From contig CAZCMD010000007.1 in assembly GCA_964499695.1 (NCBI GenBank), positions 1-59,771 of the forward strand: DNA of 59,771 nt. The letters are read 5' to 3'. Source of the DNA: an uncultured Desulfatiglans sp. Lineage in GTDB: Bacteria > Desulfobacterota > DSM-4660 > Desulfatiglandales > HGW-15. Position numbers and translations under genes: made by a program. This document shows, in pieces, positions 21,785 to 43,217 of the stretch. Under the pieces are notes generated by a model. The model searched no databases and had not been told where the DNA came from. It saw only the letters and a list, made by a program, of their open reading frames with translations. Every line of letters starts with the position of its first letter. Position 1 is the stretch's first letter.

Positions 21785-21804
21785 TTTGATTCAACCCTGG
21801 CATC

Positions 21805-23851: not shown

Positions 23852-23925
23852 TGATTGGCTCACTTTTTCCTTTGAACAATAAAAGGCGATATCACAGGTA
23901 TTGATATGTGAGATGAATCTCTTTC

Positions 23926-23967
23926 TTGACAATGTAGTTATACTTTATTATTTTATTTGGTATAACT
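23926..23967 (+). promoter_or_regulatory. Putative promoter and operator of the AbrB/PIN operon
   Basis: TTGACA at 23926-23931 and TATTTT at 23949-23954 with a 17-nt spacer. An 8-bp inverted repeat, AGTTATAC (23936-23943) / GTATAACT (23960-23967), brackets the -10 element. Confidence 0.4.
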
Positions 23968-23989
23968 ATTGTATCAAGGAGGTTCAACA

Positions 23990-24289
23990 ATGGCTACCTT
24001 ATTAAAATCAAATGGCAATATGGAGATGAAGGTATTTCACAAAGGTCAGGTTGTTATCCCTGTGGTCCTTAGAAAAAAATACAATATTGGCATCGGAGAT
24101 AGTATTCAGGCAATACCCTCTAAAGATGGTATTTTAATAAAACTTTTACCAAAAACTAAAAAATCACCATCATTAACTGATAACTTATTCGGTATTTTTG
24201 CAAATTACACAAAAGGCAATAAAAAGATTAAAAAGAAAGAGATATCAGAGGCAACCGAAAAAGGGTTCATAGAGGGCTGGGGAAAATGA
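23990..24289 (+). CDS. AbrB/SpoVT (MazE-like) family antitoxin
   Basis: The core KGQVVIPVVLRKKYNIGIGD is a SpoVT-AbrB swapped-hairpin motif. AAGGAGG RBS lies before the ATG at 23990. A 4-bp ATGA overlap joins it to the downstream PIN gene. Confidence 0.75.
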   Translation: MATLLKSNGNMEMKVFHKGQVVIPVVLRKKYNIGIGDSIQAIPSKDGILIKLLPKTKKSPSLTDNLFGIFANYTKGNKKIKKKEISEATEKGFIEGWGK

Positions 24290-24687
24290 TAGCACTGCTT
24301 GATACCAATACTATTTTACGATTTCTTACAGCTGATAAAAATATAATATATAAAAATCTTCATTCTTTCTTCCATTCTATTGAAACCGGTAAAATAAACG
24401 TTGAATTAAAACTTATTGTTTTATTTCAGGTAATTTTTGTCCTCAAAAGTTTTTATAAAGTACCAAAAGAAGAGATTGCTCACGCATTATCAACGCTTAT
24501 CAGTTACAAAGGAATCAGGATCAAGGAAAAAAAGGTCGTTCTTCGCAGTCTTGATTTATGGAAAACAAAAAATGTTGAAATTGTTGACTGTTATCTGATT
24601 GCCTGCCTTGAGGGAGATAAACAGAATATCCTGTATAGTTATGACCATGATTTTGACAGGTTTAATATTAATCGTATTGAGCCTTAA
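24286..24687 (+). CDS. vapC: PIN-domain toxin (VapC-like)
   Basis: 133 aa. N-terminal LLDTN acidic motif and C-terminal SYDHDFDR. It is translationally coupled to the antitoxin. Confidence 0.72.
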   Translation: MIALLDTNTILRFLTADKNIIYKNLHSFFHSIETGKINVELKLIVLFQVIFVLKSFYKVPKEEIAHALSTLISYKGIRIKEKKVVLRSLDLWKTKNVEIVDCYLIACLEGDKQNILYSYDHDFDRFNINRIEP

Positions 24688-24758
24688 TAATAAAACAGGG
24701 AGGGTCAAAAATGCTGATGCACAGGTTTCAATATACAAAACTCACCAGGGATCAGATT
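24448..24758. repeat. Left copy of an approximately 311-bp direct repeat (PIN 3' end, intergenic spacer, first 48 nt of the MoaF-like gene)
   Basis: 24487-24758 reads identical to 38405-38676 at a constant offset of 13918. 24448-24486 matches with 1 mismatch plus a 6-nt divergent block. Confidence 0.88.
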
Positions 24759-24788
24759 AATAAAAAGTTTGCTGCGCTTAAGAAATGA
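24711..24788 (+). pseudogene. Truncated, diverging 5' end of a MoaF-like gene
   Basis: MLMHRFQYTKLTRDQI is identical to the start of the 38629 gene. It then diverges (NKKFAALKK*) with residual nucleotide similarity continuing to about 24800. Confidence 0.6.
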
Positions 24789-24935
24789 CCTGAATGTGCT
24801 TCAGGGCTATCAAACCCCAACATAGGCTTGGGGTCTGCCCTTGACTCTTACTCGTTTAAGCTGTCCAATCCTTAAGAGTCATCGACAGATCTGAGTCCTT
24901 TTCGGTTCGCCCCTTTTAGGTTCCCGCTCATATTA

Positions 24936-26833
24936 AGGTGGACGCTGTAAGGTTATTAGGTTAAATCGCACCAACCTAATAACCGATTCCTGAGAAGTAA
25001 CTCTTGCGCATGATGCAAGCATGTGTTAGGAAAAATCATGTACAAGAAAACCAATCCCCAACAAAAGTTATTCGGTGTAGGCAGTGAGTTATCAGCCAGC
25101 TTACGTAACCGCCTTGAAACCTCATGGGCACACCTGTTTAAAACTGAGATACTTCCAATACTCTTCAGGAACGAAGATCAGTATGCTTTTCTGTATGGTA
25201 AGACAGGCCGCCCTAATTTCAGTGTTGCACGCATGCTTGGTTTATGCCTACTGCAAGAGTTTAACAACTTGAGCGATCAGCAAGCCCTTGATACATTCAG
25301 CTTTGATATCCGGTGGCGTTATGCATTAGATATCAGTGACGATGGAGATTATCTGTCTCGCAGGTCACTGGTTGAGTTCCGGAGGAGACTAGCCGCCAAA
25401 GACCCGGAAATGAAACTGGTTCGCAATGTATTTGATACTGTCAGAAACCAGGCATTAAAGAAGCTTGGTCTATCTACCAACGATCAGAGGGTCGATTCAA
25501 CACATGTTATCTCAAACATAAGAATCCGGGGAAGGTTAGCCCTGTTTTCCGATACTATCTCACATTTTCTTAAAAGTCTTACTGAAGGCCAGTTTTCAAA
25601 AGTACCAGAAGCAATACAGAAGTGGCATACCACTGATCATGAAGGTTGGTTTGGATTGGGACCATCTGAACAAAGGGATAAACTACAGGATCTGGCCGAA
25701 TATCTGTACTCGCTAATTATCCTCTTTGAACATGATAATGAGGTAATAAGCAGTGAACCCTACCAACTCATGAATAGACTCTTTAATGAACAGTGCGAGT
25801 TAAAAAACAACCTTAAATCAGATGAAGGATCATCTAAGATTACTGTTAAAAAGAAGCTGGAAGGCGGAACAAACCTTCAATCCCCTTATGATCCTGATGC
25901 ATCCTATGGACACAAGGGCGCGGGATACAGTGTTCATATAGCCGAGACATGTAATAACCAAGAGAAGACAGAAATCATAACTGATTATGAAGTTCATGGA
26001 GCTGGCAGGTCAGACATAGGAAAAGCTGTTTCAGTTGTCGAGCGGTTAGATAATGCCGGATTAAAACCTAAAACTCTTTTTGCAGATGGCGGTTATCCAT
26101 CTGTTCCATCAGCACTAAAGATAACAGAACAGGAAATTGAGTTCATTACGCCGGTCAACCGTGCCAGGTTGTCTGAAAATATCATGGGCAGAGATAGTTT
26201 TGAGTATGACTCAGAAGGCTTTCTAGTAAAATGCCCCATGGGAAACAGCCCGATAGATCACAGGATGCTCAGCCATAACAACCAAAAGGGAAGCTCTCTT
26301 CATGCCATATTTGATGGAGATACCTGCCGTAAGTGCAGTCAGCTTGACAGATGCCCAGTAAGGGCTCCCAACCACCGCAGTAAAGGATGCAAACCAAGAG
26401 GAACTATTGGTAACTTTCGTCTTGAGATTACACCAGGAATCATCCTTCGGGATAGGATGTTTTTCATTCAGAAAACTCCTGATTGGAAAGAACGATACAG
26501 CATACGTGCAGGTATTGAAGCAACCAATTCTGAACTCAAACGTGTTCATGGCTTGGCCAAACTACGTGTACGCAGGGCAGCAAAAGTTTGTTTTGCGATA
26601 GCCTGTAAGTTGATAGCATGTAACATAAAGAGGTGGGCCAAGGCCCAGAAGGCTTCCAAAAGGCCATTATACGGCTTTTTATGCATGCTAAAGATCGGAA
26701 TGCGATATTTTTTCAGGATATATTCGGATATCATTTTTTCAAAGAACGAGTACTGCATATATAATTTTTAATACTTGTTCTGCTAAAAAAGGGCACTTAT
26801 TTCTCAGGAGTCATAACCTAACAGCGTCCCCCT
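24936..26833 (+). mobile_element. IS element of the IS1182/IS5 superfamily
   Basis: Terminal inverted repeats AGGTGGACGCTGTAAGGTTAT (24936-24956) and the reverse complement of 26813-26833, AGGGGGACGCTGTTAGGTTAT (19/21 match). They enclose a single DDE transposase gene. Confidence 0.75.
25038..26771 (+). CDS. DDE transposase with a DUF772-like N-terminus and a Y-x2-R-x3-E-x6-K signature
   Basis: N-terminal FSVARMLGLCLLQEFNNLSDQQALD..IRWRYAL and C-terminal YSIRAGIEATNSELK (YREK). I chose the ATG at 25038 after AGGA; the ORF-track GTG is at 25023. Confidence 0.85.
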   Translation: MYKKTNPQQKLFGVGSELSASLRNRLETSWAHLFKTEILPILFRNEDQYAFLYGKTGRPNFSVARMLGLCLLQEFNNLSDQQALDTFSFDIRWRYALDISDDGDYLSRRSLVEFRRRLAAKDPEMKLVRNVFDTVRNQALKKLGLSTNDQRVDSTHVISNIRIRGRLALFSDTISHFLKSLTEGQFSKVPEAIQKWHTTDHEGWFGLGPSEQRDKLQDLAEYLYSLIILFEHDNEVISSEPYQLMNRLFNEQCELKNNLKSDEGSSKITVKKKLEGGTNLQSPYDPDASYGHKGAGYSVHIAETCNNQEKTEIITDYEVHGAGRSDIGKAVSVVERLDNAGLKPKTLFADGGYPSVPSALKITEQEIEFITPVNRARLSENIMGRDSFEYDSEGFLVKCPMGNSPIDHRMLSHNNQKGSSLHAIFDGDTCRKCSQLDRCPVRAPNHRSKGCKPRGTIGNFRLEITPGIILRDRMFFIQKTPDWKERYSIRAGIEATNSELKRVHGLAKLRVRRAAKVCFAIACKLIACNIKRWAKAQKASKRPLYGFLCMLKIGMRYFFRIYSDIIFSKNEYCIYNF

Positions 26834-26856
26834 CACTGCACTATAAAGGCCGGTAA

Positions 26857-27081
26857 ATGTTTGCTACATTTCTGATAGAAAGCGGAGAGCCCGATCTTAT
26901 GCGTGATCCATCGGGTGAAAACCTGGGATGGGTACAGAAAATGATGGGCCATTCTTCCCTAAAGATGATAACTGACAAATATTTCTCTTACATCCCTAAT
27001 ATGACCCATCAGGATGGGAGTAAATTCCTGGAGGAGTATGAAAAAAATGGGGAGGATGGGAAAGAAAAGATTGTTGTTTAA
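26857..27081 (+). pseudogene. C-terminal fragment of a tyrosine recombinase (integrase)
   Basis: FATFLIESGE...VQKMMGHSSLKMITDKYFSY matches the box II region (LGHxS...T..Y) of phage-type integrases. The fragment starts immediately at the right end of the IS, and the N-terminal roughly 80% of the gene is absent. Confidence 0.65.
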
Positions 27082-27279
27082 GGAAAATAAGAATAAATAA
27101 AGGAAGAGCCATTAGATCCTGCATCACTGATTATGCGGTTGTAATCTTGAAGGTATCTGACCACCCCCCCCTTTTTGCAAGGTGTCAACTTAAGTTCGTC
27201 TTCTTACAGATTATCAGATATTTTTATTCTATTATAATATAATGACAATTGTTCTCTTCATGTAATAATAAGTCAATAG

Positions 27280-28824
27280 TTAACGGCTTTTTTTACCAAA
27301 AGGTATTCCTAATTTTTTCATCTTTGTTCTGAGTGTAGAAGGATTCAGATTAAGAAGTCTCGCAGCACCTTTTTCTCCTTCAATCCGTCCTTCTGTCTTT
27401 TCTAAAGCTTGATTAATAATTTGAGTTACAGCTATATTAAAATCTCGAGTATCGTTATTCATATGTGAAAAGACGACATTTTTTGAACTATCTTGAACAT
27501 CTATGTTGTCAAAAGAAAGTGTTTCACTGTCACATAAAATAAGAGCGCGTTCCACAACATTCTGTAATTCTCTTATGTTACCTGGCCAATAATAATTCAT
27601 TAATGATTGCATAGAACCTTGTTTAATTACAGGAATATTTACCCGTCCCATTTCTTGAGCCTTTTTTCTTATGAAATGATGGACTAAGATGGGGATATCA
27701 GTAAGTCGTTCTCGTAAGGGGGGGATTGTAATGGGAAAAACATTTAGACGATAAAACAGATCTTTACGAAATTTTCCTTCAAATATCATTTTTTCAAGAT
27801 TACAATGAGTTGCGGCGATTATACGAATATCTACCTTTATAGTTTCTGTCCCACCAACTCGTTCTATTTCTTTTTCCTGTAGAATTCTGAGTAGACGTAT
27901 CTGAGCTTCTAAAGGTAATTCTCCTATTTCATCTAGAAAAATGGTACCACTATCTGCCCGTTCAAATCGTCCTCTTTTTTTGCTGAAAGCACCTGTAAAA
28001 GCTCCTTTTTCATGTCCGAAAAGTTCACTGTCTATTAATGACTCAGGGATTGCACCGCAATTCACCTTAATGAATGGTTTATCACGACGAAGAGAAAGGT
28101 TGTGAATCGTTGTAGCCATTACCTCTTTTCCAGTTCCAGTTTCTCCCAGAATGAGAACAGGGCTCATCAGTGGTGCTACCTGAATTGCCATTTTCATTAT
28201 TTGCTGAAGGCCATACTGAGTTCCTATAATTTCACTATCGATATCCTGCAGAAGTTCATTTTGCAGATAGCGATTATCATCTAATACAATGTCTTTGAGC
28301 CTTAAAACTTCGCGGTAGCGTAGATAATTGCTCATTGCAATAGCCATGGGTTCATTGAGAAGAGAAAGTAGATGCATATGGTATTCTGTATATTTTTCAT
28401 TCATATGATTACCAATGAGGATACTACAGAAAAGGTTCCATTTGGGAATTGGAGAAAAAGCTATAAAATTAACATTCTGATCACCAGTTAGTAAACTTAA
28501 AGATTCTATAATCGCGGGATCACTCGATTGATTAAAAATCAAAACATCGGCTTTTTCATCAGGTTTTTTTTGAAGTTCATCTAAAATATTTTTTGCATTT
28601 TCCGGTAAAAGTAATTTAAGTGATATAAGTCGTCCACCATCAAGATTAGCTTTTGCCAGACTTTCACCTATACCGGTATCACTGTTGTATACATTTAAAA
28701 AAATAATATCAGCCGGGATGTGTTTACGGATGTATAGCAATACATTCCATAAGGCTTTTTCAATTTCGAGACTTCCGCATATTAGCAATGTTGCCTCTCT
28801 AAAGAATATATTTTCATCAATCAT
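27280..28824 (-). CDS. Sigma54-dependent transcriptional activator (GAF-like sensor, AAA+, Fis HTH)
   Basis: GETGTGKE Walker A, GAFTGA loop (EKGAFTGA), RVGGTE, and a C-terminal HTH ([21 protein letters not shown]). Confidence 0.9.
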
Positions 28825-28956
28825 AATAGACTCCTTTCTTTTTGGATACCGCTTTATTGCACGGCTATCTGTTCAATAAAGCAGCATTTTCTGTTTTATT
28901 AAACAGTTATTAGCATATAGACAGGTAACTGTCTAATATTATTCTAATAATTTTTT

Positions 28957-28972
28957 TGGCATAGCTCATGCT
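28957..28972 (+). promoter_or_regulatory. Sigma54 (-24/-12) promoter
   Basis: TGGCATAGCTCATGCT has GG and GC 12 nt apart, matching TGGCAC-N5-TTGCW at TGGCA and TGCT. It lies 37 nt upstream of the 29009 ORF and is divergent from the activator. Palindromes TAGACAG-GTAA-CTGTCTA (28918-28935) and CTGTTT-TATT-AAACAG (28891-28906) lie upstream. Confidence 0.6.
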
Positions 28973-29008
28973 TTATATAACGTCAATGAAAAACTGGGGA
29001 GGTGGCAT

Positions 29009-29308
29009 ATGAAACAATTAGAAATTATTATTACTCGAATCCCGGCATTCCCTAAAAAAGACAACTATCAGGACCTAATAGAAATATTGAAAGTTACAGA
29101 AAAAATCGGTGGAGAAAATGCCCATATTGGGTTTTTTCAAAATAATGATGCGCCGGATGATTATGCAATTATTGCAGTGTTGCCGTCATACAATTATGAA
29201 AATAATAAAAGTGATTTAGGAATATTTTTAGTTGATGCCATGAGGCATTTTGGGCTTGTCAGTTATTCTTGCTGGAAGGCTACAGATATTAAAGACATAT
29301 TAAACTGA
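29009..29308 (+). CDS. Hypothetical 99-aa protein, first gene of the sigma54-driven efflux operon
   Basis: GGGGAGG RBS before the ATG. I recognised no family. Confidence 0.5.
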   Translation: MKQLEIIITRIPAFPKKDNYQDLIEILKVTEKIGGENAHIGFFQNNDAPDDYAIIAVLPSYNYENNKSDLGIFLVDAMRHFGLVSYSCWKATDIKDILN

Positions 29309-29320
29309 AGAGAAATTAAA

Positions 29321-30640
29321 ATGAATTTAATCAGTCGAAGTTTATTGAAATTTGTTTTTGCAATGTTATTAATCCAATCATTTAAGGCAGTTGCCCAAGA
29401 TGACCCAGGTATCACTCTTTCCGAAGGATTAAAAATCGTTACAGAAGATAGCCGTATAGTGAAAATTGCCAAATTCAGTGAGCTACTTGCAGAAACAAAT
29501 ACAAAAATAGCTAGATCAGATCTTCTTCCTAACATTAGAGCAGGTTTGTTTTACACTGACCTTTCTCATCAGCCTGCAATGAAATTTGGGACACAAATAG
29601 TTCCTGCATCTGATGCTGAATTTTATTCTTACAGCATCGAGGTCGAACAGATTCTTTTTGATTTTCGAGGAAGCCTATCAAAATATGAAGCATCTAAAAT
29701 GATTCTGGAAGCACAGAAGTTTGATACTGTCAAGACTAGCAATGATATTGCAATTGAGTTTACTAATTCATTCTATGATCTTCTGGAATCAATACACCTT
29801 ATGGATTTGGCTGCAAAAGAAACAGAACGTTTAACAGCCCATAACTCAGACACAAAAAATCTATTTGAAGCAGGTGTAATAACAATAAACGATCTTTTAC
29901 AGGTCCAAGTAAGGCTTTCAGATGCGCGAAGAAGGTACCTTACAACAAAAAATCTTGTTGATATACGGTCATCAAATCTAAACAATCTTCTGCTGCGCCC
30001 TCTTAAAAAAAATATTAAACCTTTGGAGCCTGAAGTAAATATTATTCCTCCCTCTATTAGCTATGAAAATGCATGTGATGTTGCTCTTTCTATGCGTCCT
30101 GAAATTCTCATTTTAGATCATACTCTTAACGCTCTTGATCTGGAAGAGGTTGTAAAACGATCTGAATCTTTACCAAAATTTTTTCTCAGTGGCACTAAAG
30201 AATATAAGGAGAATTCATATCAGGTCCATGAAGATAATTGGATCATTTCTCTAGGTGTTAAGGTTAATCTATTTGATGGCGGCAGATCTTTTTCTGACCT
30301 TCAGAAAACAAAAATCAGCAAGAGACAACTTATAGAGCAGCGGGAAAAACTTGTAGATGAAATAAAACTTCAACTACAAAGTTATATACTTTCGCTCGAC
30401 AATGCCTACGCGAGCATCCTTGTAAACCGCGATGCAATAGTCCAGGGAGAAGAAAATCTACGGATTAATAAAAAACGATATGAAGAAGGTGAAGGAACAG
30501 CCACAGAGGTACTTGATGCTGTAACTGATCTATCAATCTCTGAAACAAATCAAATACAGTCTGTTTATAATTATCTCAGGGCTGAAGCTGCGGTGCATTA
30601 TGCAATGGGTAAAAATTTGAGTAATATCTATAAGCAATAA
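29321..30640 (+). CDS. TolC-family outer membrane efflux protein
   Basis: 439 aa with a signal peptide and two-fold repeated coiled-coil/beta layout. It sits upstream of the MFP and RND genes. Confidence 0.8.
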   Translation: MNLISRSLLKFVFAMLLIQSFKAVAQDDPGITLSEGLKIVTEDSRIVKIAKFSELLAETNTKIARSDLLPNIRAGLFYTDLSHQPAMKFGTQIVPASDAEFYSYSIEVEQILFDFRGSLSKYEASKMILEAQKFDTVKTSNDIAIEFTNSFYDLLESIHLMDLAAKETERLTAHNSDTKNLFEAGVITINDLLQVQVRLSDARRRYLTTKNLVDIRSSNLNNLLLRPLKKNIKPLEPEVNIIPPSISYENACDVALSMRPEILILDHTLNALDLEEVVKRSESLPKFFLSGTKEYKENSYQVHEDNWIISLGVKVNLFDGGRSFSDLQKTKISKRQLIEQREKLVDEIKLQLQSYILSLDNAYASILVNRDAIVQGEENLRINKKRYEEGEGTATEVLDAVTDLSISETNQIQSVYNYLRAEAAVHYAMGKNLSNIYKQ

Positions 30641-30656
30641 GAATTTTGAAATTAAT

Positions 30657-31793
30657 ATGACAAAAGGAGCTTTAAAGGTGTTTAACTTAAGCAAAAAAAC
30701 AAAAAATATTTTTATCATAGTGAGTATTATCTTTACCCTTGGAATACTAATAGCAGTTCTTATGCATAGTGATCATGACCCACAGACCGAAACCGTAAAA
30801 CAGGACATTTTACAGGTTCAGGCCATGTCAATAACTCCAGAATTGTCAGGGCAACTGCATATCTATGCTGGAGAGGTATGTGGACGTTATGAAAGTCAAC
30901 TTGCTTTCCAGGTGAGTGGTAAAATTATAAGCCGCCATGTTGAGGTGGGTTCCTATGTCAAGAAGGGACAGCCTCTTATGCAGATTGATCCAAAAGATAT
31001 AGAGCAAATTGTTAAAAGCCAATTGGCAATGGTTGAAGCGGCTAAGTCACAGCTTCAATTTTCAGAAAAAAATAACAATAGATATCGTTTACTCTTTGAA
31101 CAGGAGGTGATCAGTCGATCCCAAATGGATCGTTTTCAAACCGCTTATGACGTAGCAAGTGCTGAATACAGGAATGTCAGCGCAATGTATGCTCAGAGTC
31201 TCAATCAGTTAAATTATTGTAGTCTTAATGCAAATTACGATGGAGTAGTGTCATCTATCCAGGGTGAAATCGGACAGGTAGTGGGTGCCGGGCAACCTGT
31301 TATGACAATTGTCAGAGACGGTGATCGTGAAATTGAAATATATATACCTGAAAATCATTTGCAGAATATTCACAATAATCAACGAACACGAATTACATTC
31401 TGGGCGATAACAGGCATTGATTGTTCAGCCACCATACGCGAAATTGCACCAATGGCTGATCCTGTCACAAGGACCTATAAAGTCAGGGTGAGTCTTACGG
31501 AACAACTTCCCGAAGTCAAATTAGGTATGACAGCTTCTGTAGAAATGCTCGGCGATCAGGATAACAGGATATTTATCCCTCTTTCCTCCATTTACCAGAC
31601 GAAAGAGGCTCCATTTGTTTGGGTTATACGAAATGGAATACTACAACTACGACCCATAAAAACTGGCGACTTTGGAAATAATATTATCCAGATACTAGAA
31701 GGTCTGAATCCTGGTGAAATAATTGTGACCGCTGGAGTTCATAAATTGAAGGAAGGACAGCAGGTAAAAATATTGGGAGGCGGCAGATCATGA
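30657..31793 (+). CDS. RND efflux periplasmic adaptor (MFP)
   Basis: N-terminal membrane anchor, lipoyl/hairpin/beta-barrel pattern (VEVGSYVKKGQPLMQID ... VTAGVHKLKEGQQV). An ATGA overlap joins it to the RND gene. Confidence 0.85.
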   Translation: MTKGALKVFNLSKKTKNIFIIVSIIFTLGILIAVLMHSDHDPQTETVKQDILQVQAMSITPELSGQLHIYAGEVCGRYESQLAFQVSGKIISRHVEVGSYVKKGQPLMQIDPKDIEQIVKSQLAMVEAAKSQLQFSEKNNNRYRLLFEQEVISRSQMDRFQTAYDVASAEYRNVSAMYAQSLNQLNYCSLNANYDGVVSSIQGEIGQVVGAGQPVMTIVRDGDREIEIYIPENHLQNIHNNQRTRITFWAITGIDCSATIREIAPMADPVTRTYKVRVSLTEQLPEVKLGMTASVEMLGDQDNRIFIPLSSIYQTKEAPFVWVIRNGILQLRPIKTGDFGNNIIQILEGLNPGEIIVTAGVHKLKEGQQVKILGGGRS

Positions 31794-34700
31794 AGCAGTT
31801 CAACTTGACTCAATGGGCGCTCAGCCATAAACAGTTTATATATTATTTGATCATCGTTGCTTTTATCGGAGGCATTTATTCCTACATAAACCTTGGAAGA
31901 ATGGAGGATCCCGATTTTACCATACGTCAGATGATTGTCAGCGTTGCCTGGCCAGGGGCAACCGCCCGGGAAATGGAAGAGCAGGTAGTAGATAAAATAG
32001 AGAAAAAACTTCAGGAAACACCAGGATTGGATTATTTAAAGAGTTTTTCTACACCAGGTCAGTCTGTTATTTATGTTTCTCTTAAAGATGATGAGGTAAC
32101 AGTAGATGAGATTCAATCCATATGGAAGGAAGTCCGTAATCTGGTAGGAGATATGAAGGATACCCTGCCGAAAGGAGTGGTAGGTCCTTTCTTCAACGAT
32201 CGCTTCAGTGATGTATTCGGGTGTGTATTTGCCCTTACCGGGGATGGATTAACTTATGAGGAAATGAGGGAGCTTGCAGAAAGGATCAGGCGCAAGATTC
32301 TGGGTATTCCCAGAGTCAAGAAAGTGGAACTACTGGGTGTCCAGGCCGAAAAAATAACAGTGGAAATGGAAACGAACAAGTTGGCCAAGATGGGATTTGA
32401 TCCTTCGATTATAGCCCATTCACTGGAAAGTCAGAACGCCATGACTCCTTCCGGAATGATCGAAACAAACTCAGATCGTGTATACCTCAGGGTCAATAGG
32501 ATGTTCAAGGATTTGGAAGACCTGGGTAATGTCCCTCTTAATGTCGCAGGTAAGACCTTCCGTCTAGGTGATATTTCCAAAATCACACGCGGATATTCAG
32601 ACCCTCCGGATACCATGATGTTTTTTAATGGATATCCCGCCATCGGTATTTCAGTCTCCATGCAGGAAGGGGGAAATATTCTTACCCTGGGTAAAAATCT
32701 AGAACAACTGGTGACTAGGATTCAAAAGGATCTTCCAGCAGGAATTGAACTCACCTCTGTATTTGATCAGCCAACGGTTGTAAAAAATTCTATTGAAGAT
32801 TTTGTCCATGTACTGGTCGAGGCAGTGATTATTGTACTCATCGTCTGTTTTATAAGCATGGGTCTGCGTTCTGGCGTGGTAGTCACATTGTGCATCCCCT
32901 TAGTCATTCTGACGGTGTTCATTGTTATGAAATTTTCAGGAATCGACCTGCATAAGATATCTCTGGGAGCGCTCATTGTGGCATTGGGACTTCTTGTTGA
33001 TGATGCCATTATTGTCATTGAGATGATGCTCGTCAAGCTGGAACAGGGTTGGAAACGAGTTGATGCAGCTTCTTTTGCCTATACTGCCACAGCCTACCCC
33101 CGTCTGACAGGTGCCCTTGTCACCAGCGCCGGATTTCTACCCGTTGGCTTTTCAAAGGGTTCGGCTTCAGAATTTGTAGGATCTCTTTTTTATGTGGTAG
33201 CGATTGCCCTCATCATTTCATGGATTGTAGCTGGAACAGCGGCTCCTCTTATCGGATCACTTCTGGTCAAACCAAAATCACACGATGAAGGGCATGACAT
33301 ATATGATACTCCATTTTATAGGTGGTTTAAAAGGCTTTTATCCTGGTGCATGAGACATCGATGGTTGGTAATCATGGCGACCTTAGTAAGTTTATTATGC
33401 GCTGTAAAGTTGATGAGTTTTGTAAAAAAGGAGTTTTTCCCTGCGTCGGTTCGACCAGAGGTCGTAGTTGATATTCGTCTTCCTCAGGGGGCTTCCATTA
33501 AGGCAACAGAGCAGATAACAACCAGATTCGCTAAACAATTTGACAATGATTCTGATGTGATTAATTATTCGTATTATGTTGGCCAGGGAGCACCCAGATT
33601 TATCCTGACTGCTGAACCTGTACTTCCTGACAGTAATTTTGCCCAAATAATACTACTTGCTAAAGATCGTGATGCGCGGGAACGACTCATATCAAAAGCT
33701 AACATGCTTTTCAGTACTAAATTTTCGGAAGTTCGTAGCAATGTTAAGATAATTAAATCAGGTCCTTCTGAATCATATCCTGTACTTCTCAGGGTTTCCG
33801 GAATTGAACATGACAGAGTTCGGGAGATAGCGGAGAGTGCTCTTGAAGTGATGTATGCAGACCCCAATCTGAAAGATCCTCATTTGGATTGGTACAAGAA
33901 AAACCAGGTTATGCATCTTGATATCGATCAGGATAAGGTCAGAGCTCTTGGGCTTGATAACAGAACTCTTGCCGCAAACCTACAGACTCTCCTTTCAGGC
34001 GCACAGATTGCTGAATTTCGAGAAATGGACAAAACGGTCAGTGTCCTATTTCGAATCGATGCTAACAATAGGGCTGATTTGTCACAGGTAAAAAATCTGA
34101 ATGTCCATGTGGGTGAAGGGCGTTTTGTTCCTTTGGACCAGATTGCAAGAATAAGTTATGATGCGGAAGATGGGCTTATATGGCGACGCGATCTGAAACC
34201 GACTATTACTCTGCAGGCTAACGTTGTTCCAGGGGTTACAGGTAATGATGCGACTCAAAAAGTATATGCCAATCTGGAGTCTCTCAGAAATTCGCTGCCG
34301 CAGGATTATACCATCGAGGTCGCTGGAACCTTAGAGAGTAGCAACAATGCATCTAAATGGTTGATGGTACCTGTTCCCATGATGATTATCATTATCATGA
34401 CTCTTTTGATGTTCCAGTTACAAAGCATCTCAAAGATGATCATGACACTTCTTACCGCTCCAATGGGTTTAATCGGGGTGAGTCTGGCTTTATTCCTGAC
34501 AGGAAGTCCGATGGGTTTTGTAGTACAGTTAGGGATTCTTGCTCTTTCGGGCATCATCATGCGTAACAGTGTCATCCTTATTGATCAAATTGATCAGCAA
34601 CTTAAGGCAGGTGAGTCACTCTGGGATGCAATCATAAATGCAACAACCCTGCGTTTTCGACCAATTATGCTGACAGCAGCGGCGGCCATTCTTGCTATGG

Positions 34701-34834
34701 TCCCTATTTCTTTTAATGTATTTTGGGGTCCCATGGCAGTTGCCATAGGTGGAGGTTTGGTCGGTGCTACCATACTAACTCTTTTGGTTTTGCCGGCCAT
34801 ATATGCTGCTTGGTATAAAGTTAAACAGGAATAA
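31790..34834 (+). CDS. RND family efflux permease (AcrB-like)
   Basis: 1014 aa with 12-TM pseudo-repeat topology and two large periplasmic loops. Has the VGLLVDDAIIVIE motif. Confidence 0.9.
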   Translation: MKQFNLTQWALSHKQFIYYLIIVAFIGGIYSYINLGRMEDPDFTIRQMIVSVAWPGATAREMEEQVVDKIEKKLQETPGLDYLKSFSTPGQSVIYVSLKDDEVTVDEIQSIWKEVRNLVGDMKDTLPKGVVGPFFNDRFSDVFGCVFALTGDGLTYEEMRELAERIRRKILGIPRVKKVELLGVQAEKITVEMETNKLAKMGFDPSIIAHSLESQNAMTPSGMIETNSDRVYLRVNRMFKDLEDLGNVPLNVAGKTFRLGDISKITRGYSDPPDTMMFFNGYPAIGISVSMQEGGNILTLGKNLEQLVTRIQKDLPAGIELTSVFDQPTVVKNSIEDFVHVLVEAVIIVLIVCFISMGLRSGVVVTLCIPLVILTVFIVMKFSGIDLHKISLGALIVALGLLVDDAIIVIEMMLVKLEQGWKRVDAASFAYTATAYPRLTGALVTSAGFLPVGFSKGSASEFVGSLFYVVAIALIISWIVAGTAAPLIGSLLVKPKSHDEGHDIYDTPFYRWFKRLLSWCMRHRWLVIMATLVSLLCAVKLMSFVKKEFFPASVRPEVVVDIRLPQGASIKATEQITTRFAKQFDNDSDVINYSYYVGQGAPRFILTAEPVLPDSNFAQIILLAKDRDARERLISKANMLFSTKFSEVRSNVKIIKSGPSESYPVLLRVSGIEHDRVREIAESALEVMYADPNLKDPHLDWYKKNQVMHLDIDQDKVRALGLDNRTLAANLQTLLSGAQIAEFREMDKTVSVLFRIDANNRADLSQVKNLNVHVGEGRFVPLDQIARISYDAEDGLIWRRDLKPTITLQANVVPGVTGNDATQKVYANLESLRNSLPQDYTIEVAGTLESSNNASKWLMVPVPMMIIIIMTLLMFQLQSISKMIMTLLTAPMGLIGVSLALFLTGSPMGFVVQLGILALSGIIMRNSVILIDQIDQQLKAGESLWDAIINATTLRFRPIMLTAAAAILAMVPISFNVFWGPMAVAIGGGLVGATILTLLVLPAIYAAWYKVKQE

Positions 34835-34881
34835 AATATGTGGCGATAGAAGATAAGTATGTTTCATAGAGGAGATGTTAA

Positions 34882-35313
34882 ATGAATAATAGTAATGATT
34901 TGGAAAATAGAGAATTATTTATTACCCCAGAAGAAACTCTTAAAAATAAAACTATAAAGTCATTCTATTCATTTATAAAACAATTTCATAAACTGGAAAA
35001 AAAATTGCATGATGAATTTAAAGTCACTGTTTACCAAATTGAATTACTTGACAATTTGTTTAATCATGAGCCAAACAAATTAACCCCTACGCAGATATCA
35101 ATATGTATCCGTCTCAGTAAGAGTACTATCACAGAGTGTATTGATTCACTTGAATGTAAAGGATATGTGTGTAGAGAATCCCATGATCTAGATCGTCGTA
35201 AAATTATCATACGATTAACAGAAAAAGGGAAAGTTTTCTGTAAACAAAAAATACCCTTAATATATGAAATTATAAATTTCTATTTTAATAAACTATACAA
35301 TGAAAGACGATGA
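34882..35313 (+). CDS. MarR-family transcriptional regulator
   Basis: 143 aa with the winged-helix core LTPTQISICIRLSKSTITECIDSLECKGYVCRESHDLDRRKIIIRLTEKG. Confidence 0.75.
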   Translation: MNNSNDLENRELFITPEETLKNKTIKSFYSFIKQFHKLEKKLHDEFKVTVYQIELLDNLFNHEPNKLTPTQISICIRLSKSTITECIDSLECKGYVCRESHDLDRRKIIIRLTEKGKVFCKQKIPLIYEIINFYFNKLYNERR

Positions 35314-35432
35314 AAGCGGGAGGGAGAGGGATGTAAGGTAATCCCTTCTATTAGCCATCGGAGGTCCTCCAATATATTTTTTATCTCCTCCTCCGGTGGC
35401 TATAATAATAAATTCATATATGGAATTATCAA

Positions 35433-36221
35433 TTGATAAAAATATGTGATAAAAAAATATGGTTTCAAATAACTATAAATATAGTCAACAAATTAGGCTT
35501 AGTTTTTATTTTTATGTGTAAAGGTTTTTTAAGAGTTTTCAGCCGTAGACAATTATTCCCTGTAATAGAACAAATCTATTTTATTGGAGCAGGGTCAACC
35601 CATATAGTCATACTTGTGGCGCTGTTTACAGGCATGGTACTGGGTCTGCAACTCTACAGTACTTTAATAAGGGTCGGTTCCACAGGTTATCTTGGTTCAG
35701 TTGTTGCACTATCGTTAATAAGAGAGCTTGGTCCTGTCCTTACTGCGATTATGGTCACTGCAAGAGCCGGATCATCTATGGCTACAGAAATTGGGATTCA
35801 ACGTATATCAGAGCAGATTGATGCCCTCCAGTCTATGCGTATTGACCCTATCAGATATTTAGTGAGCCCGAGGATTGCAGCTACCATTATAAGTTTTCCA
35901 ATTTTGACTACTCTGTTTAATATTGTAGGTATATTTGGTGGGTACCTTAGTACTGTCCTCCTTCTGGGTTTAAATCCCGGCACCTACTTTAATAGTATTC
36001 AAACAAGTGTAATCATGGATGATATCATTGGTGGGTTAATAAAATCTCTGGTTTTTGGGATTGTCATTTGTACAATATGTTGTTTTAAAGGATATTATAC
36101 ACATACTTTTTCCGGTGCATATGGAGCTAAAGGTGTCGGACTTTCCACAACCTCTGCCGTAGTACTTTCATGTATCATTATTCTTATTTCAGATTATACA
36201 ATTACTGCTTTAATACTGTAG
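35433..36221 (+). CDS. mlaE: MlaE-type ABC transporter permease
   Basis: RELGPVLTAIMVTARAGSSMATEIG.QRISEQIDALQSM is the MlaE/Ttg2B signature. The start is uncertain (TTG at 35433; an internal ATG gives MCKGF). Confidence 0.8.
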   Translation: MIKICDKKIWFQITINIVNKLGLVFIFMCKGFLRVFSRRQLFPVIEQIYFIGAGSTHIVILVALFTGMVLGLQLYSTLIRVGSTGYLGSVVALSLIRELGPVLTAIMVTARAGSSMATEIGIQRISEQIDALQSMRIDPIRYLVSPRIAATIISFPILTTLFNIVGIFGGYLSTVLLLGLNPGTYFNSIQTSVIMDDIIGGLIKSLVFGIVICTICCFKGYYTHTFSGAYGAKGVGLSTTSAVVLSCIIILISDYTITALIL

Positions 36222-36227
36222 GTTCTC

Positions 36228-37034
36228 ATGGAATGCCCTTTAATAGAATTCCGTAATATATCAAAAAAATTTAGAGACAGAGTTATTCTCGATAAAATTG
36301 GTCTAAAGATATTCGAAGGGCAAATTACTGTTATTATTGGGAAGAGCGGCGTGGGAAAGAGTGTATTATTAAAACATATCATTGGATTACTCGAACCGGA
36401 TGAAGGCGATATATTTTTTCATGGAAAGCTTATAAAGGAATTTTCCAAGAAGGAATGGTATTTCTATCTAAGTCGAATAAGTTATATGTTCCAGAATAAT
36501 GCTCTTTTCGATTCCTTAACTGTCTATGAAAATATTGCTCTTCCTCTTCGTCAGACAACTAAAATGACTGAGAAGGAAATAGCATTAAAAGTAATGGCCC
36601 GTATTGAACAGATAGAACTTTTAGAAGACATATATAAATACCCGGCTGAGCTTTCAGGAGGTATGCAGAAAAGAGTTGCTTTGGGTAGAGCATTGGTTAC
36701 AGATCCTGAAATTGTTCTTTTTGATGAACCGACCAGTGGGCAGGATATAATGAGAAAGAATGCTATATTAAGTATGATCTCACAATATCAGAAAAAATTG
36801 CAATTTACAGCAATCCTGGTTAGTCATGATCTGCCGGAAGTATTGTTGATCTCAAATCGTGTGCTTTTACTTCACAATAGAAGACTTGTTTTCCAAGGTA
36901 CAATCAAAGAATTGAATCATTTTGAACACCCTTTTATTGATGAAATCCGATGTATAGATGATCTTAGACGTCAGATAATTGGAAATATAGATTCAAATGT
37001 TATGACCAAAGAATTCATGAGAAAAAGGAGCTGA
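36228..37034 (+). CDS. mlaF: MlaF-type ABC transporter ATP-binding protein
   Basis: Walker A GKSGVGKS, signature LSGGMQKRVALGRAL, Walker B VLFDEP. Confidence 0.85.
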   Translation: MECPLIEFRNISKKFRDRVILDKIGLKIFEGQITVIIGKSGVGKSVLLKHIIGLLEPDEGDIFFHGKLIKEFSKKEWYFYLSRISYMFQNNALFDSLTVYENIALPLRQTTKMTEKEIALKVMARIEQIELLEDIYKYPAELSGGMQKRVALGRALVTDPEIVLFDEPTSGQDIMRKNAILSMISQYQKKLQFTAILVSHDLPEVLLISNRVLLLHNRRLVFQGTIKELNHFEHPFIDEIRCIDDLRRQIIGNIDSNVMTKEFMRKRS

Positions 37035-37062
37035 TTTTAAGGGGAATCAAAGGAGTGAGGAA

Positions 37063-37515
37063 GTGAGAAAAATAACAATTGAGACGATAGTGGGTATATT
37101 TGTTCTTATTGGAATAATAAGTATTAGTTATATGACCGTAAAGCTCGGTAATGTAAATCTTTTAAAATCTGATTCATACAAATTATATGCCAAATTTACA
37201 TCTGTCTCTGGGTTGAGAATAAATAATAATATTGAAATTTTTGGTATGGAAGTAGGTAGAGTCAAGGGATTAATAATGGATCAGGAAAAGCAGTTGGTTG
37301 TAGTAGAAATGCAAATAGCTAATGGTATTAAGATATACGAAGATGCTATAGCTTCGATTAAAACATCAGGTCTGATTGGAGAGAGGTACATAAATATAAA
37401 TCCAGGTGGAGCTTATGAACGTTTGCTTCCAGGTGCTACAATAATAGATACAGAACCACCCATAGACCTTACAGATATCATTAGCAAATATGCTTTTGGA
37501 GATATTAGCAAATAG
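37063..37515 (+). CDS. mlaD: MlaD/MCE-domain substrate-binding protein
   Basis: N-terminal TM anchor followed by an MCE fold (YKLYAKFTSVSGLRINNNIEIFGMEVGRVKGL). Confidence 0.75.
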   Translation: MRKITIETIVGIFVLIGIISISYMTVKLGNVNLLKSDSYKLYAKFTSVSGLRINNNIEIFGMEVGRVKGLIMDQEKQLVVVEMQIANGIKIYEDAIASIKTSGLIGERYININPGGAYERLLPGATIIDTEPPIDLTDIISKYAFGDISK

Positions 37516-37562
37516 TAATAAGAGAAAAGAATTTAGGAGTATAACGAAGGTATTTTTACATT

Positions 37563-38144
37563 ATGGAACATAAATTGTTTATAGTTTTAGTTATTTTGGT
37601 TATGGGGAATTGTACTTCTGATAGGATTGCGTCGGCGGAACAGGGATCAAAAAGCACAGAGTATGTAGGCATATCTCATCATTATGCAGAGGAGGCTAAC
37701 GGACTCTTGAAAAATTCTACTATTGTCGATTATGAAAGTCGACAGTTAAGGATTTATGCAGGAAAATATTTAAAGGATTCATATAGAATGGAATGCGAAA
37801 TTATTTTTGCAAATATCAAAGAACAAGGTGACATAAAGAAAGAAGAAATACTATATGGTATCCAAACTGGAATTTTATACGACATTCTACGTTTTGATAA
37901 ATTTAATCTTTTTACTGGTGTTTTAGCCGGGTTGGGTTATCTAAATCATCCAACAGGTTATGTAGCACTTGGCGAGGAAAGCCCCTTTGGTCTGTTCGAT
38001 GGTAGACTGGGAGTTGAATACATATACAATAAAAAAATATCAGTAAGAGCTCAGGTTGGTGTATGGCATATATCTTCAGCTTTTAATAATGATCAGGGAC
38101 AAAACTACCGGGATTTCAGTGTTCATATTGGCTATCGTTATTGA
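37563..38144 (+). CDS. Small outer-membrane beta-barrel, acyloxyacyl hydrolase (PagL-like lipid A deacylase) candidate
   Basis: Signal peptide. The C-terminal WHISSAFNNDQGQN resembles the H-x-S-N catalytic motif of the PagL family. Ends in aromatic YRY. Confidence 0.42.
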   Translation: MEHKLFIVLVILVMGNCTSDRIASAEQGSKSTEYVGISHHYAEEANGLLKNSTIVDYESRQLRIYAGKYLKDSYRMECEIIFANIKEQGDIKKEEILYGIQTGILYDILRFDKFNLFTGVLAGLGYLNHPTGYVALGEESPFGLFDGRLGVEYIYNKKISVRAQVGVWHISSAFNNDQGQNYRDFSVHIGYRY

Positions 38145-38235
38145 CCAAGAGGTGTTGGATGTAAAGCTCTCTTTTGATTACTAATTTATCTAAGGAGAAA
38201 TAATCTGATAATTATACTTCGTTGAGGTTTAGTAA

Positions 38236-38376
38236 ATGTGCGGCAAACCCACCTTTGAAGAACAAGAACAAAAAATCAAAAATCTTAAAAAACTCCTTAA
38301 AAAACAAGAGGAGGCTGAAATAAAGCTTCTTAAAGATCTAAGCGAGTTAAAACAGACTGAAAAACAGTTTTTATAA
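38236..38376 (+). pseudogene. 46-codon coiled-coil ORF, possible 5' fragment of a sensor gene cut off at the right repeat
   Basis: MCGKPTFEEQEQKSKNLKKLLKKQEEAEIKLL.. runs into the start of the right direct repeat and stops at 38374-38376. Confidence 0.25.
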
Positions 38377-38676
38377 AATACCAAAAGAAGAGATTGCTGG
38401 GGTGTTATCAACGCTTATCAGTTACAAAGGAATCAGGATCAAGGAAAAAAAGGTCGTTCTTCGCAGTCTTGATTTATGGAAAACAAAAAATGTTGAAATT
38501 GTTGACTGTTATCTGATTGCCTGCCTTGAGGGAGATAAACAGAATATCCTGTATAGTTATGACCATGATTTTGACAGGTTTAATATTAATCGTATTGAGC
38601 CTTAATAATAAAACAGGGAGGGTCAAAAATGCTGATGCACAGGTTTCAATATACAAAACTCACCAGGGATCAGATT
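38366..38676. repeat. Right copy of the approximately 311-bp direct repeat
   Basis: See 24448-24758. The identical core is 38405-38676. Confidence 0.88.
38402..38605 (+). pseudogene. 3' fragment of the PIN toxin gene (C-terminal 67 codons only)
   Basis: Residues LSTLISYKG...NRIEP are identical to the C-terminus of the 24286-24687 product. It has no N-terminal PIN acidic residues and no partner antitoxin. Confidence 0.8.
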
Positions 38677-40407
38677 GATGAAGAGTTAGGTGCACTTTTC
38701 GGTGGGCCGGAATGTGTTTCTGAACGTTCTGATATTCTTGCAGGCAAATCAATGAAAATTGTAACTGATAACGGCCCGGTGCTTGAATACACATTTAGAG
38801 ATATCAGCAGGTTATCTCTTATTGAAGATGGTAAAAAGGCGGTTGAATGCGGTTATGGAGCACTGACCCTCAAGCATGTTGTTTTCTTTTCACATATGAT
38901 CCCCGGCACACAGAAGGGTTACAACATTGCTATAGACCTGAAATCCGGCCTTGCCACGGTTATTGAGATATGGTTCTGCGGGTATGAAGATAACAGGGAG
39001 GTACAGAGGGAGATATACTATGGTTATGTTGATACAGGCAAATCTGCTCCTCATGAACGTCACCATATAACAAACAGGATATCAGGCAAGGGTTTTCACT
39101 GGAAAACGGACATGGGCATAGAAACCCTGGAATTCTTCCTTTCAGTTACATACTCCTCTTTTCTGGAGCTGACCCGAAATAATGATGAACTTGTCTATTG
39201 CGCCCCTTCGGATTTTATTCAGGTAGATGAAAATATATTTTTATATGACAGGGTCGAATGTGAATTCTCCGGCATTATGACTATGTATATCCTTGACCTC
39301 TTCACACTCACACAGGCAGGCGTAAGGCTCGGGTTCAATGAAAAAGATGAACTTGAATATTACATGTTCAGGGGAGAGGGAGAGATAACAGGCCAGATAG
39401 CACAGTTCCATGCCTTTGATGATCATGGTAAAGAGATTATTTATGAAATGAAGACACCCCCTGTGCCTAAAGGCAAAGAACCTCCGCCGCCCCCACCAGT
39501 AGTAAAAAAGAAAGGATTCAGGCCTGTGTACCGGCCCTTTAAGGATCTCCCTCCATTAACTGAAAAACGGGTAAATGAAATTGTTAAGCAAAGCCCGCCT
39601 CCGTTTAATGATGCAGGGGTTATGGATTCAGGCACATTAGGTAACAAGATGCCGTTAAGTGATTATCTCGTGGGTAAAGAACTAACTCTCCGCTATGACA
39701 ATAATGGCCCTGTATGGAATTACAGATTTGATGAGATAAAAAAGCTCAAATACCGTCGTGAAGGAGAGGTAAGATGGCATGAAGAGCTTTATGAGGCATT
39801 TGAGCCTGCTGAAAACATGATCGTTTTCGTGAATCCACACAGTGATGTTACCCCGCATGAAAGTGTTTACATCGTATTAGATCTTGCAAATGGTCTTACT
39901 ACATGCGTTTACTCAATGCTTGGTTCTCCTTACATGGCAAATGAGGTGTCACAGGAGGTTTTATTCGGCATCATCGAGATGGAAGGTATCAAAGCTCCCG
40001 GTATGTTAAGGCACCACTTTACAGATGAAATGGTAGGCACTTCACTCACATGGTCATACAGTGATTTCATGTCATCCATCCATGTATACAGCACGCCCTT
40101 CTCATACTCATGGACCATCTTTTATAAAAATGATGTGCCCGGCATGATGTGGAGTTCCCCATGCAAATATGTAAAACTGAGGGAAGACACATACCTTTTT
40201 ACATGGATAGAAGAGGCATGCAATGGCAGCCAGGGGACGATCGTTTTTAACAAAAGAACCATGCATGATTGCGGATGCTTCTATGGCGTGAATGAGATTG
40301 GCAAAACGCCACCCAGCGGTTTAACACTGGGCACCTTCGGTGCACTGGCACGTAATGCAGGATATTATGATATTAAGAAATATCTGGGGGCGAAGGTGAA
40401 GAGATGA
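38629..40407 (+). CDS. Tandem-duplicated MoaF-like (calycin / phenolic-acid-decarboxylase-like fold) protein with a proline-rich linker
   Basis: There are two internally homologous halves. GKSMKIVTDNGPVLEYTFRD and HHITNRISGKGFHW in the first correspond to GKELTLRYDNNGPVWNYRFDE and HHFTDEMVGTSLTW in the second. They are joined by KTPPVPKGKEPPPPPPVVKKK...SPPPF. The family assignment is from memory of MoaF N/C domains. Confidence 0.5.
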   Translation: MLMHRFQYTKLTRDQIDEELGALFGGPECVSERSDILAGKSMKIVTDNGPVLEYTFRDISRLSLIEDGKKAVECGYGALTLKHVVFFSHMIPGTQKGYNIAIDLKSGLATVIEIWFCGYEDNREVQREIYYGYVDTGKSAPHERHHITNRISGKGFHWKTDMGIETLEFFLSVTYSSFLELTRNNDELVYCAPSDFIQVDENIFLYDRVECEFSGIMTMYILDLFTLTQAGVRLGFNEKDELEYYMFRGEGEITGQIAQFHAFDDHGKEIIYEMKTPPVPKGKEPPPPPPVVKKKGFRPVYRPFKDLPPLTEKRVNEIVKQSPPPFNDAGVMDSGTLGNKMPLSDYLVGKELTLRYDNNGPVWNYRFDEIKKLKYRREGEVRWHEELYEAFEPAENMIVFVNPHSDVTPHESVYIVLDLANGLTTCVYSMLGSPYMANEVSQEVLFGIIEMEGIKAPGMLRHHFTDEMVGTSLTWSYSDFMSSIHVYSTPFSYSWTIFYKNDVPGMMWSSPCKYVKLREDTYLFTWIEEACNGSQGTIVFNKRTMHDCGCFYGVNEIGKTPPSGLTLGTFGALARNAGYYDIKKYLGAKVKR

Positions 40408-40412
40408 AGAAA

Positions 40413-41497: not shown

Positions 41498-41501
41498 CAA
41501 T

Positions 41502-43214: not shown

Positions 43215-43217
43215 AAT

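Follow-up and report, generated by a model that had tools for sequence, protein, structure and literature searches.

Two diverged copies of a toxin–MoaF gene junction bracket accessory DNA at a comM–MoaF recombination hotspot in an uncultured Desulfatiglans

We describe here a 59,771-nt stretch of DNA from an uncultured Desulfatiglans sp. (positions 1 to 59,771 of contig CAZCMD010000007.1, a contig of the metagenome-assembled genome (MAG) GCA_964499695.1; referred to below as the window), in which a comM/yifB gene and a gene for a MoaF-like protein are separated by 14.8 kb of DNA that carries an imperfect direct repeat. From left to right this interval holds a predicted toxin–antitoxin (TA) pair, made up of an AbrB-fold antitoxin and a PIN-domain toxin, the left copy of the repeat, an insertion sequence (IS), the remnant of a tyrosine recombinase, a cargo of regulator, efflux and Mla genes, the head of a histidine kinase gene and the right copy of the repeat, which runs into the intact MoaF-like gene (Table 1). 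That an IS, an integrase remnant and such a cargo lie between the repeats had been read from the letters alone, and profile searches bear this out. We conclude that the 14.8 kb of 23852-38609 is strain-specific accessory DNA at a recombination hotspot between conserved core genes, and that the repeats are not the attL and attR sites of an integrated element. The explanation that we prefer, with a probability of roughly 0.55, is that the region is a mosaic formed by two or more recombination events, which used homology in the flanks and were illegitimate in the interior, and which left two xenologous versions of the junction between PIN 3' end and MoaF 5' end in tandem.

A repeat search and a pairwise alignment of the window placed the two copies at an offset of 13918 over 314 nt (24445-24758 and 38363-38676), with a perfect core of 272 nt (24487-24758 against 38405-38676) and seven mismatches, all of them within the first 42 nt (24447, 24460, 24481-83 and 24485-86). 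An exact repeat of 272 nt within 60 kb cannot be due to chance. Each copy is composed of the end of the PIN gene, a spacer and the beginning of the MoaF-like gene (lengths in Table 1); on the left the PIN gene is intact and only the start of the MoaF-like gene is present, and on the right a 3' fragment of the PIN gene precedes the complete 592-aa MoaF-like gene. The identity of the core and this division of intact and partial genes had both been proposed in the sequence-only reading, and the self-alignment agrees with it while extending the repeat to its full 314 nt. Beyond the core a weak similarity continues to 24812/38730, where 32 of 54 nt match and the frame is kept with one TGA on the left, and the left copy therefore holds a 101-nt stub of the MoaF-like gene.

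Table 1. Features of the interval between comM and the MoaF-like gene, with its two bordering core genes (positions in the window)
Feature	Position	Strand	Basis or remark
comM/yifB, Mg-chelatase-like AAA ATPase	22322..23851	+	NCBIfam TIGR00368, 658 bits; left core gene of hotspot
AbrB/MazE-fold antitoxin (predicted)	23990..24289	+	Pfam MazE_antitoxin E 2.5e-4, NCBIfam AbrB domain E 3e-4, both below cut-off
PIN-domain toxin (predicted), intact, 133 aa	24286..24687	+	Pfam PIN 31.4 bits (cut-off 23.6)
Left direct-repeat copy	24445..24758	+	PIN 3' 243 nt, 24-nt spacer, MoaF nt 1-47; repeat search, alignment
MoaF-like 5' stub, 101 nt, divergent B type	24712..24812	+	In-frame TGA; illegitimate junction at end
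Spacer S4, 123 nt, two hairpins	24813..24935	.	Not integrase coding
IS1182-like element	24936..26833	+	Transposase 25023-26771; Pfam DUF772, DDE_Tnp_1_6, DDE_Tnp_1 above cut-offs
Tyrosine recombinase C-terminal remnant, ~80 aa	26834..27081	+	Internal stop; Phage_integrase E 0.13, profile positions 144-166
Sigma-54-dependent transcriptional activator	27280..28824	-	Sigma54_activat 240 bits, AAA_lid_14, HTH_8; divergent from orf99 operon
Candidate sigma-54 -24/-12-like site	28957..28972	+	TGGCAT-N5-CATGCT; 37 nt upstream of orf99
orf99	29009-29308	+	ORF list
TolC-like outer-membrane efflux protein	29321-30640	+	Pfam
Periplasmic adaptor	30657-31793	+	Pfam
RND pump	31790-34834	+	Pfam
MarR-family regulator	34882..35313	+	26.9% GC; profile search
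MlaE	35433-36221	+	Pfam
MlaF, ABC ATPase	36228-37034	+	Pfam
MlaD	37063-37515	+	Pfam
Small outer-membrane beta-barrel protein	37563..38144	+	OMP_b-brl E 1.9e-4, below cut-off
Histidine-kinase head (43 codons; 46-codon ORF)	38236..38376	+	Fused in another frame to PIN codon 54
Right direct-repeat copy	38363..38676	+	PIN 3' remnant from codon 54 at 38363-38605
MoaF-like gene, intact, 592 aa, two MoaF modules, A type	38629..40407	+	Pfam MoaF, MoaF_C; right core gene of hotspot

The source community is represented by six bioreactor metagenomes (X1-X6) that hold the sequence, and these were used in the form of Logan unitigs with k=31. Such unitigs show the junctions between flank and core, but not which incoming flank pairs with which outgoing one, and the path through the multicopy IS likewise lies beyond their resolution. 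In X1 and X2 two haplotypes of 24530-24726 occur at equal single-copy depth (10.4 and 9.8 in X1), one of them identical to the window and the other different at eight positions (24560, 24561, 24591, 24618, 24645, 24666, 24675 and 24696). An unbranched unitig of X6 (24442-24818) carries the variant haplotype together with edges specific to the left copy, and a unitig of X5 (24339-24686) joins it to the unique 5' part of the PIN gene; the variant is thus the true sequence of the left copy, where it amounts to W92F, five synonymous substitutions and one change between genes. The perfect identity in the window is probably a consensus artefact, most simply a bubble that was collapsed during assembly. 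With this correction the two copies are ~95% identical (15 mismatches over 314 nt), with dN 0.040, dS 0.153 and dN/dS 0.26, and they have exact blocks of 73 nt and 62 nt in common. A ratio of this size points to two alleles that evolved separately as working genes and not to a recent duplication. In the community the unitigs end 30 nt into the core, whichever of the four flanks they come from. Each of the four junctions of flank and core is present at single-copy depth (13.1, 11.4, 10.3 and 7.6 in X1), and two copies per genome are therefore real; a 73-mer of the core that both copies share has a depth of 30 in X1.

The setting of the locus in other genomes was obtained by scanning a genome collection with the MoaF-like protein, which gave five close loci in MAGs labelled as uncultured Desulfatiglans, Desulfobacteraceae or Deltaproteobacteria. 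ComM is 92-94% identical at the amino acid level to its counterparts in three relatives, L001, L002 and L009, and the space between comM and the MoaF-like gene has a different filling in each. In L001 the comM stop codon lies 19 nt from the MoaF start, and the TA pair and the 13.9 kb are both absent; in L002 the gap is taken up by an unrelated VapBC pair on the opposite strand, and in L009 by 4 kb of other genes, the VapBC pair of L002 and a glyoxalase gene. With interval lengths of 0 (L001), 0.8 (L002), 4 (L009) and 14.8 kb (window) and unrelated contents, the space between the two core genes is therefore a variable hotspot, and relative to the empty state the insert in the window is 23852-38609, with the TA pair included. 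A further locus, L003, is without the comM context and has distant MlaEFD genes (45-58% amino acid identity) upstream of its MoaF gene. No further MoaF stubs were found in the hotspot fillers of these relatives.

The two MoaF 5' ends in the window belong to different allele types. The left copy is ~80% identical over 24692-24802 to L001, L002 and L009, and the right copy ~90%. A contig of 887 nt from X3 (15x) matches 24732-24812 with six differences (~93%) and then continues as a MoaF-like gene, whereas the left stub is only 59% identical to the intact gene of the window over nucleotides 48-101; the stub is therefore a different allele, which we call B type. This result, together with copies that are ~5% apart (dS 0.15, dN/dS 0.26), runs against the earlier view that an island split a single PIN/MoaF junction and thereby created the duplication. 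At the other inner end the 38236 open reading frame (ORF) is 60% identical (E 6e-5) to residues 1-45 of P0213, a protein of 670 aa with PAS, HisKA, HATPase_c and Response_reg domains; a weak MrpR_N_CB match (E 0.038) had suggested an integrase N terminus for this ORF, which was rejected, as the ORF encodes the beginning of a hybrid histidine kinase. Both inner ends of the repeat are thus gene-truncating illegitimate junctions, one at nucleotide 101 of a MoaF gene and the other between a kinase head and codon 54 of a PIN gene. Within the spacer that follows the stub, 24859-24894 recurs at ~90% identity in other contigs of X1-X3. A conserved promoter-like region (TTGACAC...TATCAT) is seen ~85 nt upstream of the MoaF-like gene in L002 (8020-8121), L009 (9906-10000) and L003 (9894-10000), and is missing from L001 and from both copies in the window, where the MoaF-like gene must therefore be read from upstream transcription.

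A sister strain that resides in the same community, seen in X3 at 15-19x, gives a closer view of how far the exchange reaches. It is 98.3-99.9% identical to the window over 4200-23343 and 40370-58000, and the genome-wide difference between the two strains is ~0.4%. In comM (X3 unitig 22453-23496) the sister is identical to 23343, then has six differences in 120 nt (23344-23461) and then separates. Its MoaF-like gene is 92% identical to that of the window over 38650-39536 (887 nt), with dense differences to ~39906, returns to ~99% after roughly 39910-40370 and is 98.6-99.8% identical from 40370 onward; it is preceded by a promoter region of the L009 type and not by a PIN gene. This strain-specific tract, from inside comM to about two-thirds into the MoaF-like gene, reads as the trace of homologous exchange at the hotspot. 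In X4 the left module (23820-24406 and the variant core 24530-24758) is well covered and the cargo nearly absent (word share 0.55 vs 0.06), which shows that the left module also occurs in a different background that lacks the cargo. A seeming absence of the AbrB and PIN 5' parts from X6 was put down to patchy, low coverage (word share 0.14-0.21).

The cargo differs from its surroundings in composition. The GC content of the insert is 37.6% against 43% in the flanks, and the tetranucleotide distance peaks at 0.032 against 0.0159 +/- 0.0024, with atypical blocks at 27-31 kb and 35-38 kb (GC 34-35%) and a near-native centre at the RND gene; these profiles agree with the atypical composition suggested by the sequence-only reading, the spot counts of which (14 G+C in the line at 36241 and 34 in the line at 18361) are exact. 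The Pfam families for orf99 to the RND pump and for the Mla genes were read from the identical products of locus L013. The candidate sigma-54 site ahead of orf99 has two mismatches in a pattern that is no commoner in the window than expected by chance, and its position is the sole argument for it. The small outer-membrane protein has a single homolog (64%), encoded directly behind a different RND pump in L011 (1959-5602), which is from a Desulfobacteraceae MAG; in the window the MarR–MlaEFD block (34882-37515, 27-36% GC) stands between pump and outer-membrane gene, as if it had been inserted into an older operon. Profile annotation revealed no replication, transfer or working recombinase gene in the cargo, no transfer RNA gene or att-like core was found in the window, an Rfam scan of 22-41 kb gave no family and a plasmid BLAST of the IS and integrase region no match. 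The island is by now an immobile cargo, with a probable role in envelope stress or efflux.

The IS has terminal inverted repeats that match at 19 of 21 positions (24936-24956 and 26813-26833); since it scores 196 bits with the NCBIfam IS1182 model, below the cut-off of 270, it is named IS1182-like. No target-site duplication was apparent when its flanks, TCATATTA and CACTGCAC, were compared. It is present once in the window by self-BLAST, on which ground a composite transposon was rejected, and it is multicopy in the community, with loose unitig ends at 24930-24942. Its first ~50 nt (24935-24984, with a 12-bp perfect hairpin) also occur with other flanks on both sides, and this recurrence, like that of the spacer, suggests derivatives resembling miniature inverted-repeat transposable elements. 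The recombinase remnant next to it has 85 homologs at 56-94% identity (P0122-P0206; L077-L079), many of them named 'integrase' by their sources. All 85 are themselves short (44-141 aa), also where the contig is 20-38 kb long, and several start at a similar point, e.g. ...RTRLRSKYVFLN; going by these lengths and starts, they seem to form a family of C-terminal integrase fragments that recurs. The idea that the IS split an integrase gene, with 24813-24935 as its head, was rejected after translation against these homologs.

The TA genes at the left edge overlap by 4 nt, and thus form adjacent small genes in one operon; the antitoxin ORF begins mechanically at TTG 23969, and its likely start is ATG 23990, which follows AAGGAGG. 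For the PIN protein 639 homologs were retrieved, and most of the matches listed are, like it, 133 aa long. Residue W92 is invariant in eight aligned sequences; in the community unitigs the intact PIN protein has W92F, and the truncated right fragment keeps the tryptophan. The toxin may, on this alignment, be attenuated by W92F. Small overlapping genes, a PIN domain, membership of a widespread and mostly 133-aa family and a place at the edge of an accessory region are all as in VapBC-type type II TA systems; unlike these, the intact copy has W92F in community reads, and TA function is here a prediction. Exact-protein look-ups with the PIN and MoaF-like proteins of the window found nothing on record. 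The same AbrB–PIN module (~92% at the nucleotide level) adjoins a glyoxalase gene in metagenome contig L010, and the contig of P0209, a protein of the same 90%-identity cluster, agrees with L010 in its gene order, the one feature compared for that contig; a glyoxalase gene such as stands beside AbrB–PIN in these two contigs flanks the MoaF gene in L009.

The mosaic reading sets out from what is observed: the anatomy of the locus, the divergence of the alleles, the variable hotspot and the divergence profile against the sister strain. An ancestor would have had cargo, histidine kinase gene, AbrB–PIN pair and MoaF gene in this order, and a deletion would have joined the head of the kinase gene to codon 54 of the PIN gene. 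A second event would then have stacked the two versions, with its homology anchor either in comM (divergence from ~23344) or in the MoaF gene (divergence to ~39910-40370) and with an illegitimate other end at nucleotide 101 of MoaF, as in homology-facilitated illegitimate recombination (HFIR), or 'sequential displacement'; in a third step the IS would have inserted or rearranged beside the recombinase remnant. Version 1, on the left, consists of the intact AbrB–PIN pair and the first 101 nt of a B-type MoaF allele; version 2, on the right, has the intact A-type MoaF gene preceded by what is left of the 3' end of a second PIN allele. A decayed island separates the two, made up of recombinase remnant and IS, sigma-54 activator with TolC, adaptor and RND genes, MarR–MlaEFD, outer-membrane protein and kinase head. 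The truncated remnants at the site (MoaF stub to nucleotide 101, PIN gene from codon 54, kinase head) are compatible with the pattern of HFIR.

Several points weigh against this reading. We infer the order of events and the one-sided use of homology from one genome and unitig fragments, and neither a donor or intermediate genome nor a close relative of the cargo was found in the searched collections, the latter not in a metagenome scan with the RND pump either. A PIN gene directly upstream of a full MoaF gene occurs in none of nine genome loci and in none of the 62 metagenome loci that a scan with PIN returned; the empty site with PIN and MoaF contiguous that the sequence-only reading had led one to expect was thus not met with, and the empty site of L001 is without the TA pair as well. 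The haplotype of the right copy was assigned by elimination, without direct phasing, and X3 has the variant haplotype only. The exact blocks of 62 nt and 73 nt may owe their identity to crossover or conversion and not to conservation. In addition, the left junction has the recombinase remnant nearby, as would also be the case in a classical integrase-borne island.

The crossover question leads to a Campbell-type origin, which we regard as unlikely. Here a circle with the cargo and its own diverged PIN 3' end, spacer and MoaF 5' end would have entered a resident comM/AbrB–PIN/MoaF locus by a RecA-mediated single crossover, which would leave chimeric repeats and could be reversed by excision. 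The geometry is exactly that of a single crossover, with the diverged ends on the inner sides (GGGGTG at 38399-38404; the B-type stub at 24759-24812), the two exact blocks would suffice for RecA, swapped connections of the repeats close a circle of 13,918 nt that is compatible with the unitigs, and the depth of cargo to flanks is ~1:1 in X1-X3. However, such a circle would have to contain two illegitimate junctions of its own (kinase head to PIN fragment, and MoaF stub to 24813), no replication, transfer or working recombinase gene was seen in its cargo, and a resident PIN/MoaF site was seen in no locus scanned. The X4 data, with the left haplotype at 0.55 and the cargo at 0.06, also argue for an unbroken left module and not for a chimera.

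In a classical island, a left-end tyrosine recombinase would have targeted the 5' end of MoaF, a surrogate PIN fragment, spacer and MoaF 5' end would have rebuilt the gene, the repeats would be attL and attR, and the IS would later have destroyed the integrase. The remnant, 2 kb from the left junction (~120 nt without the IS) and reading inward, the atypical composition and the empty site in relatives would all suit this. So would the repeats, which are long and imperfect with mostly synonymous differences and so resemble gene-restoring attP arms. Such arms are known from e14 and phage 21, which integrate at the 3' end of icd and restore the gene. As in icd, long direct repeats of a gene end are seen of which one is functional and one a remnant; unlike in icd, there is no working integrase, the junctions truncate unrelated genes, and the homology covers two genes and a spacer. 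The recombinase amounts to ~80 codons with a stop, its upstream sequence (24813-24935) is not integrase, and the right end is a truncated kinase gene on a truncated PIN gene and not an element arm. Moreover, the 'rebuilt' MoaF gene is 8% away from the sister strain over ~1.3 kb, far past any att arm; the empty site also lacks the TA pair, the same island was found at this site in no relative, and the repeats are 314 nt long, ~95% alike and graded in similarity to 24812, which is not the short identical core of att sites. This origin is distinctly unlikely in our view. Of the earlier proposal of an integrated genomic island or a recombination-mediated insertion, the accessory nature of the DNA stands, since comM and MoaF are 19 nt apart in L001, as does its foreign composition, and the second of the two options is the better one; an att-bracketed island, with a recombinase reduced to an ~80-aa remnant, is not supported.

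That the island is an integrase-independent mobile unit, which would use a portable toxin 3'/MoaF 5' handle for RecA-mediated single crossovers into and out of AbrB–PIN/MoaF strains, is very unlikely; if it were true, the TA module would be both an addiction system and a landing pad. Two ~95% identical copies of 314 nt could still permit a rare RecA-mediated loss of the cargo. Finally, an assembly chimera, in which two strains or loci were joined through the shared core or the multicopy IS so that the copies are not 13.9 kb apart in a real genome, is very unlikely: although the window is a MAG contig, two haplotypes were evidently merged by the assembler, the community contains several strains that are close relatives, and core and IS are repeat nodes with unitig breaks (24516, 24729, 25876-26712, 38434 and 38647), all four flank-core junctions stand at single-copy depth, the depth of the core in X1 is about twice as high (73-mer 30; haplotypes 10.4 + 9.8), cargo and flanks are ~1:1 in three samples, the comM-to-MoaF synteny is that of L001, L002 and L009, and the alternative resolution would be a 13.9-kb circle without replicon genes.

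Strain differences are also seen elsewhere in the window. Just past the MoaF-like gene a low-GC 4-kb segment (40435-44465) is missing from the ~15x strain of X3, with a 23-nt filler at the joint. It encodes an S-adenosylmethionine (SAM) methyltransferase, a predicted class D (OXA-type) beta-lactamase (41502-42320, minus strand; 291 bits against a cut-off of 250), a second methyltransferase and a GNAT acetyltransferase, and the order of MoaF, OXA-like and methyltransferase genes is kept in L004. The depth in X3 is ~140x at 41920-42583 against ~16x nearby, and ~100x over a cNMP-binding/PilZ gene at 10407-11093 (10176-10839). Other joints in X3 skip 1697 nt (51524-53220) and 447 nt (52771-53217), and many skips of ~120 nt fall in the triple-receiver hybrid kinase gene at 6694-9576 (8108-8657).

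The mosaic reading places the locus near two known situations. Chromosomal hotspots of horizontal gene transfer have conserved core genes on either side (Oliveira et al. 2017, PMC5635113), and here likewise one pair of core genes, comM/yifB and the MoaF-like gene, bounds a different content in each relative, including TA modules and mobile-element remnants, and the recombination tracts in the window extend into the flanking core genes; unlike in that work, the comparison covers a few MAGs of uncultured Desulfatiglans-like bacteria and a single bioreactor community and not a species-wide pangenome. Sequential displacement by HFIR has been described for Vibrio cholerae type VI secretion effector/immunity arrays and for rhs loci (PMC5361080), where a module anchored by a conserved flank is stacked beside an older one and leaves truncated 'orphan' remnants in tandem, as may have happened here. 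In the window the orphans derive from the 3' part of a PIN gene and the 5' part of a MoaF gene and not from immunity genes, a 13-kb island lies between them, and the mechanism is one that we infer.

The locus also holds a caution for the analysis of MAGs, in that a long 'perfect' repeat around an island in a MAG contig mimics an att duplication, while here diverged alleles were collapsed by the assembler. For the biology of these organisms, the finding is ordinary and leaves the general picture unaltered: it adds one more hotspot flanked by core genes (comM/yifB on one side, a MoaF-like gene on the other), found in uncultured Desulfatiglans-like bacteria, at which TA modules and an efflux/Mla island turn over through recombination among co-resident strains.

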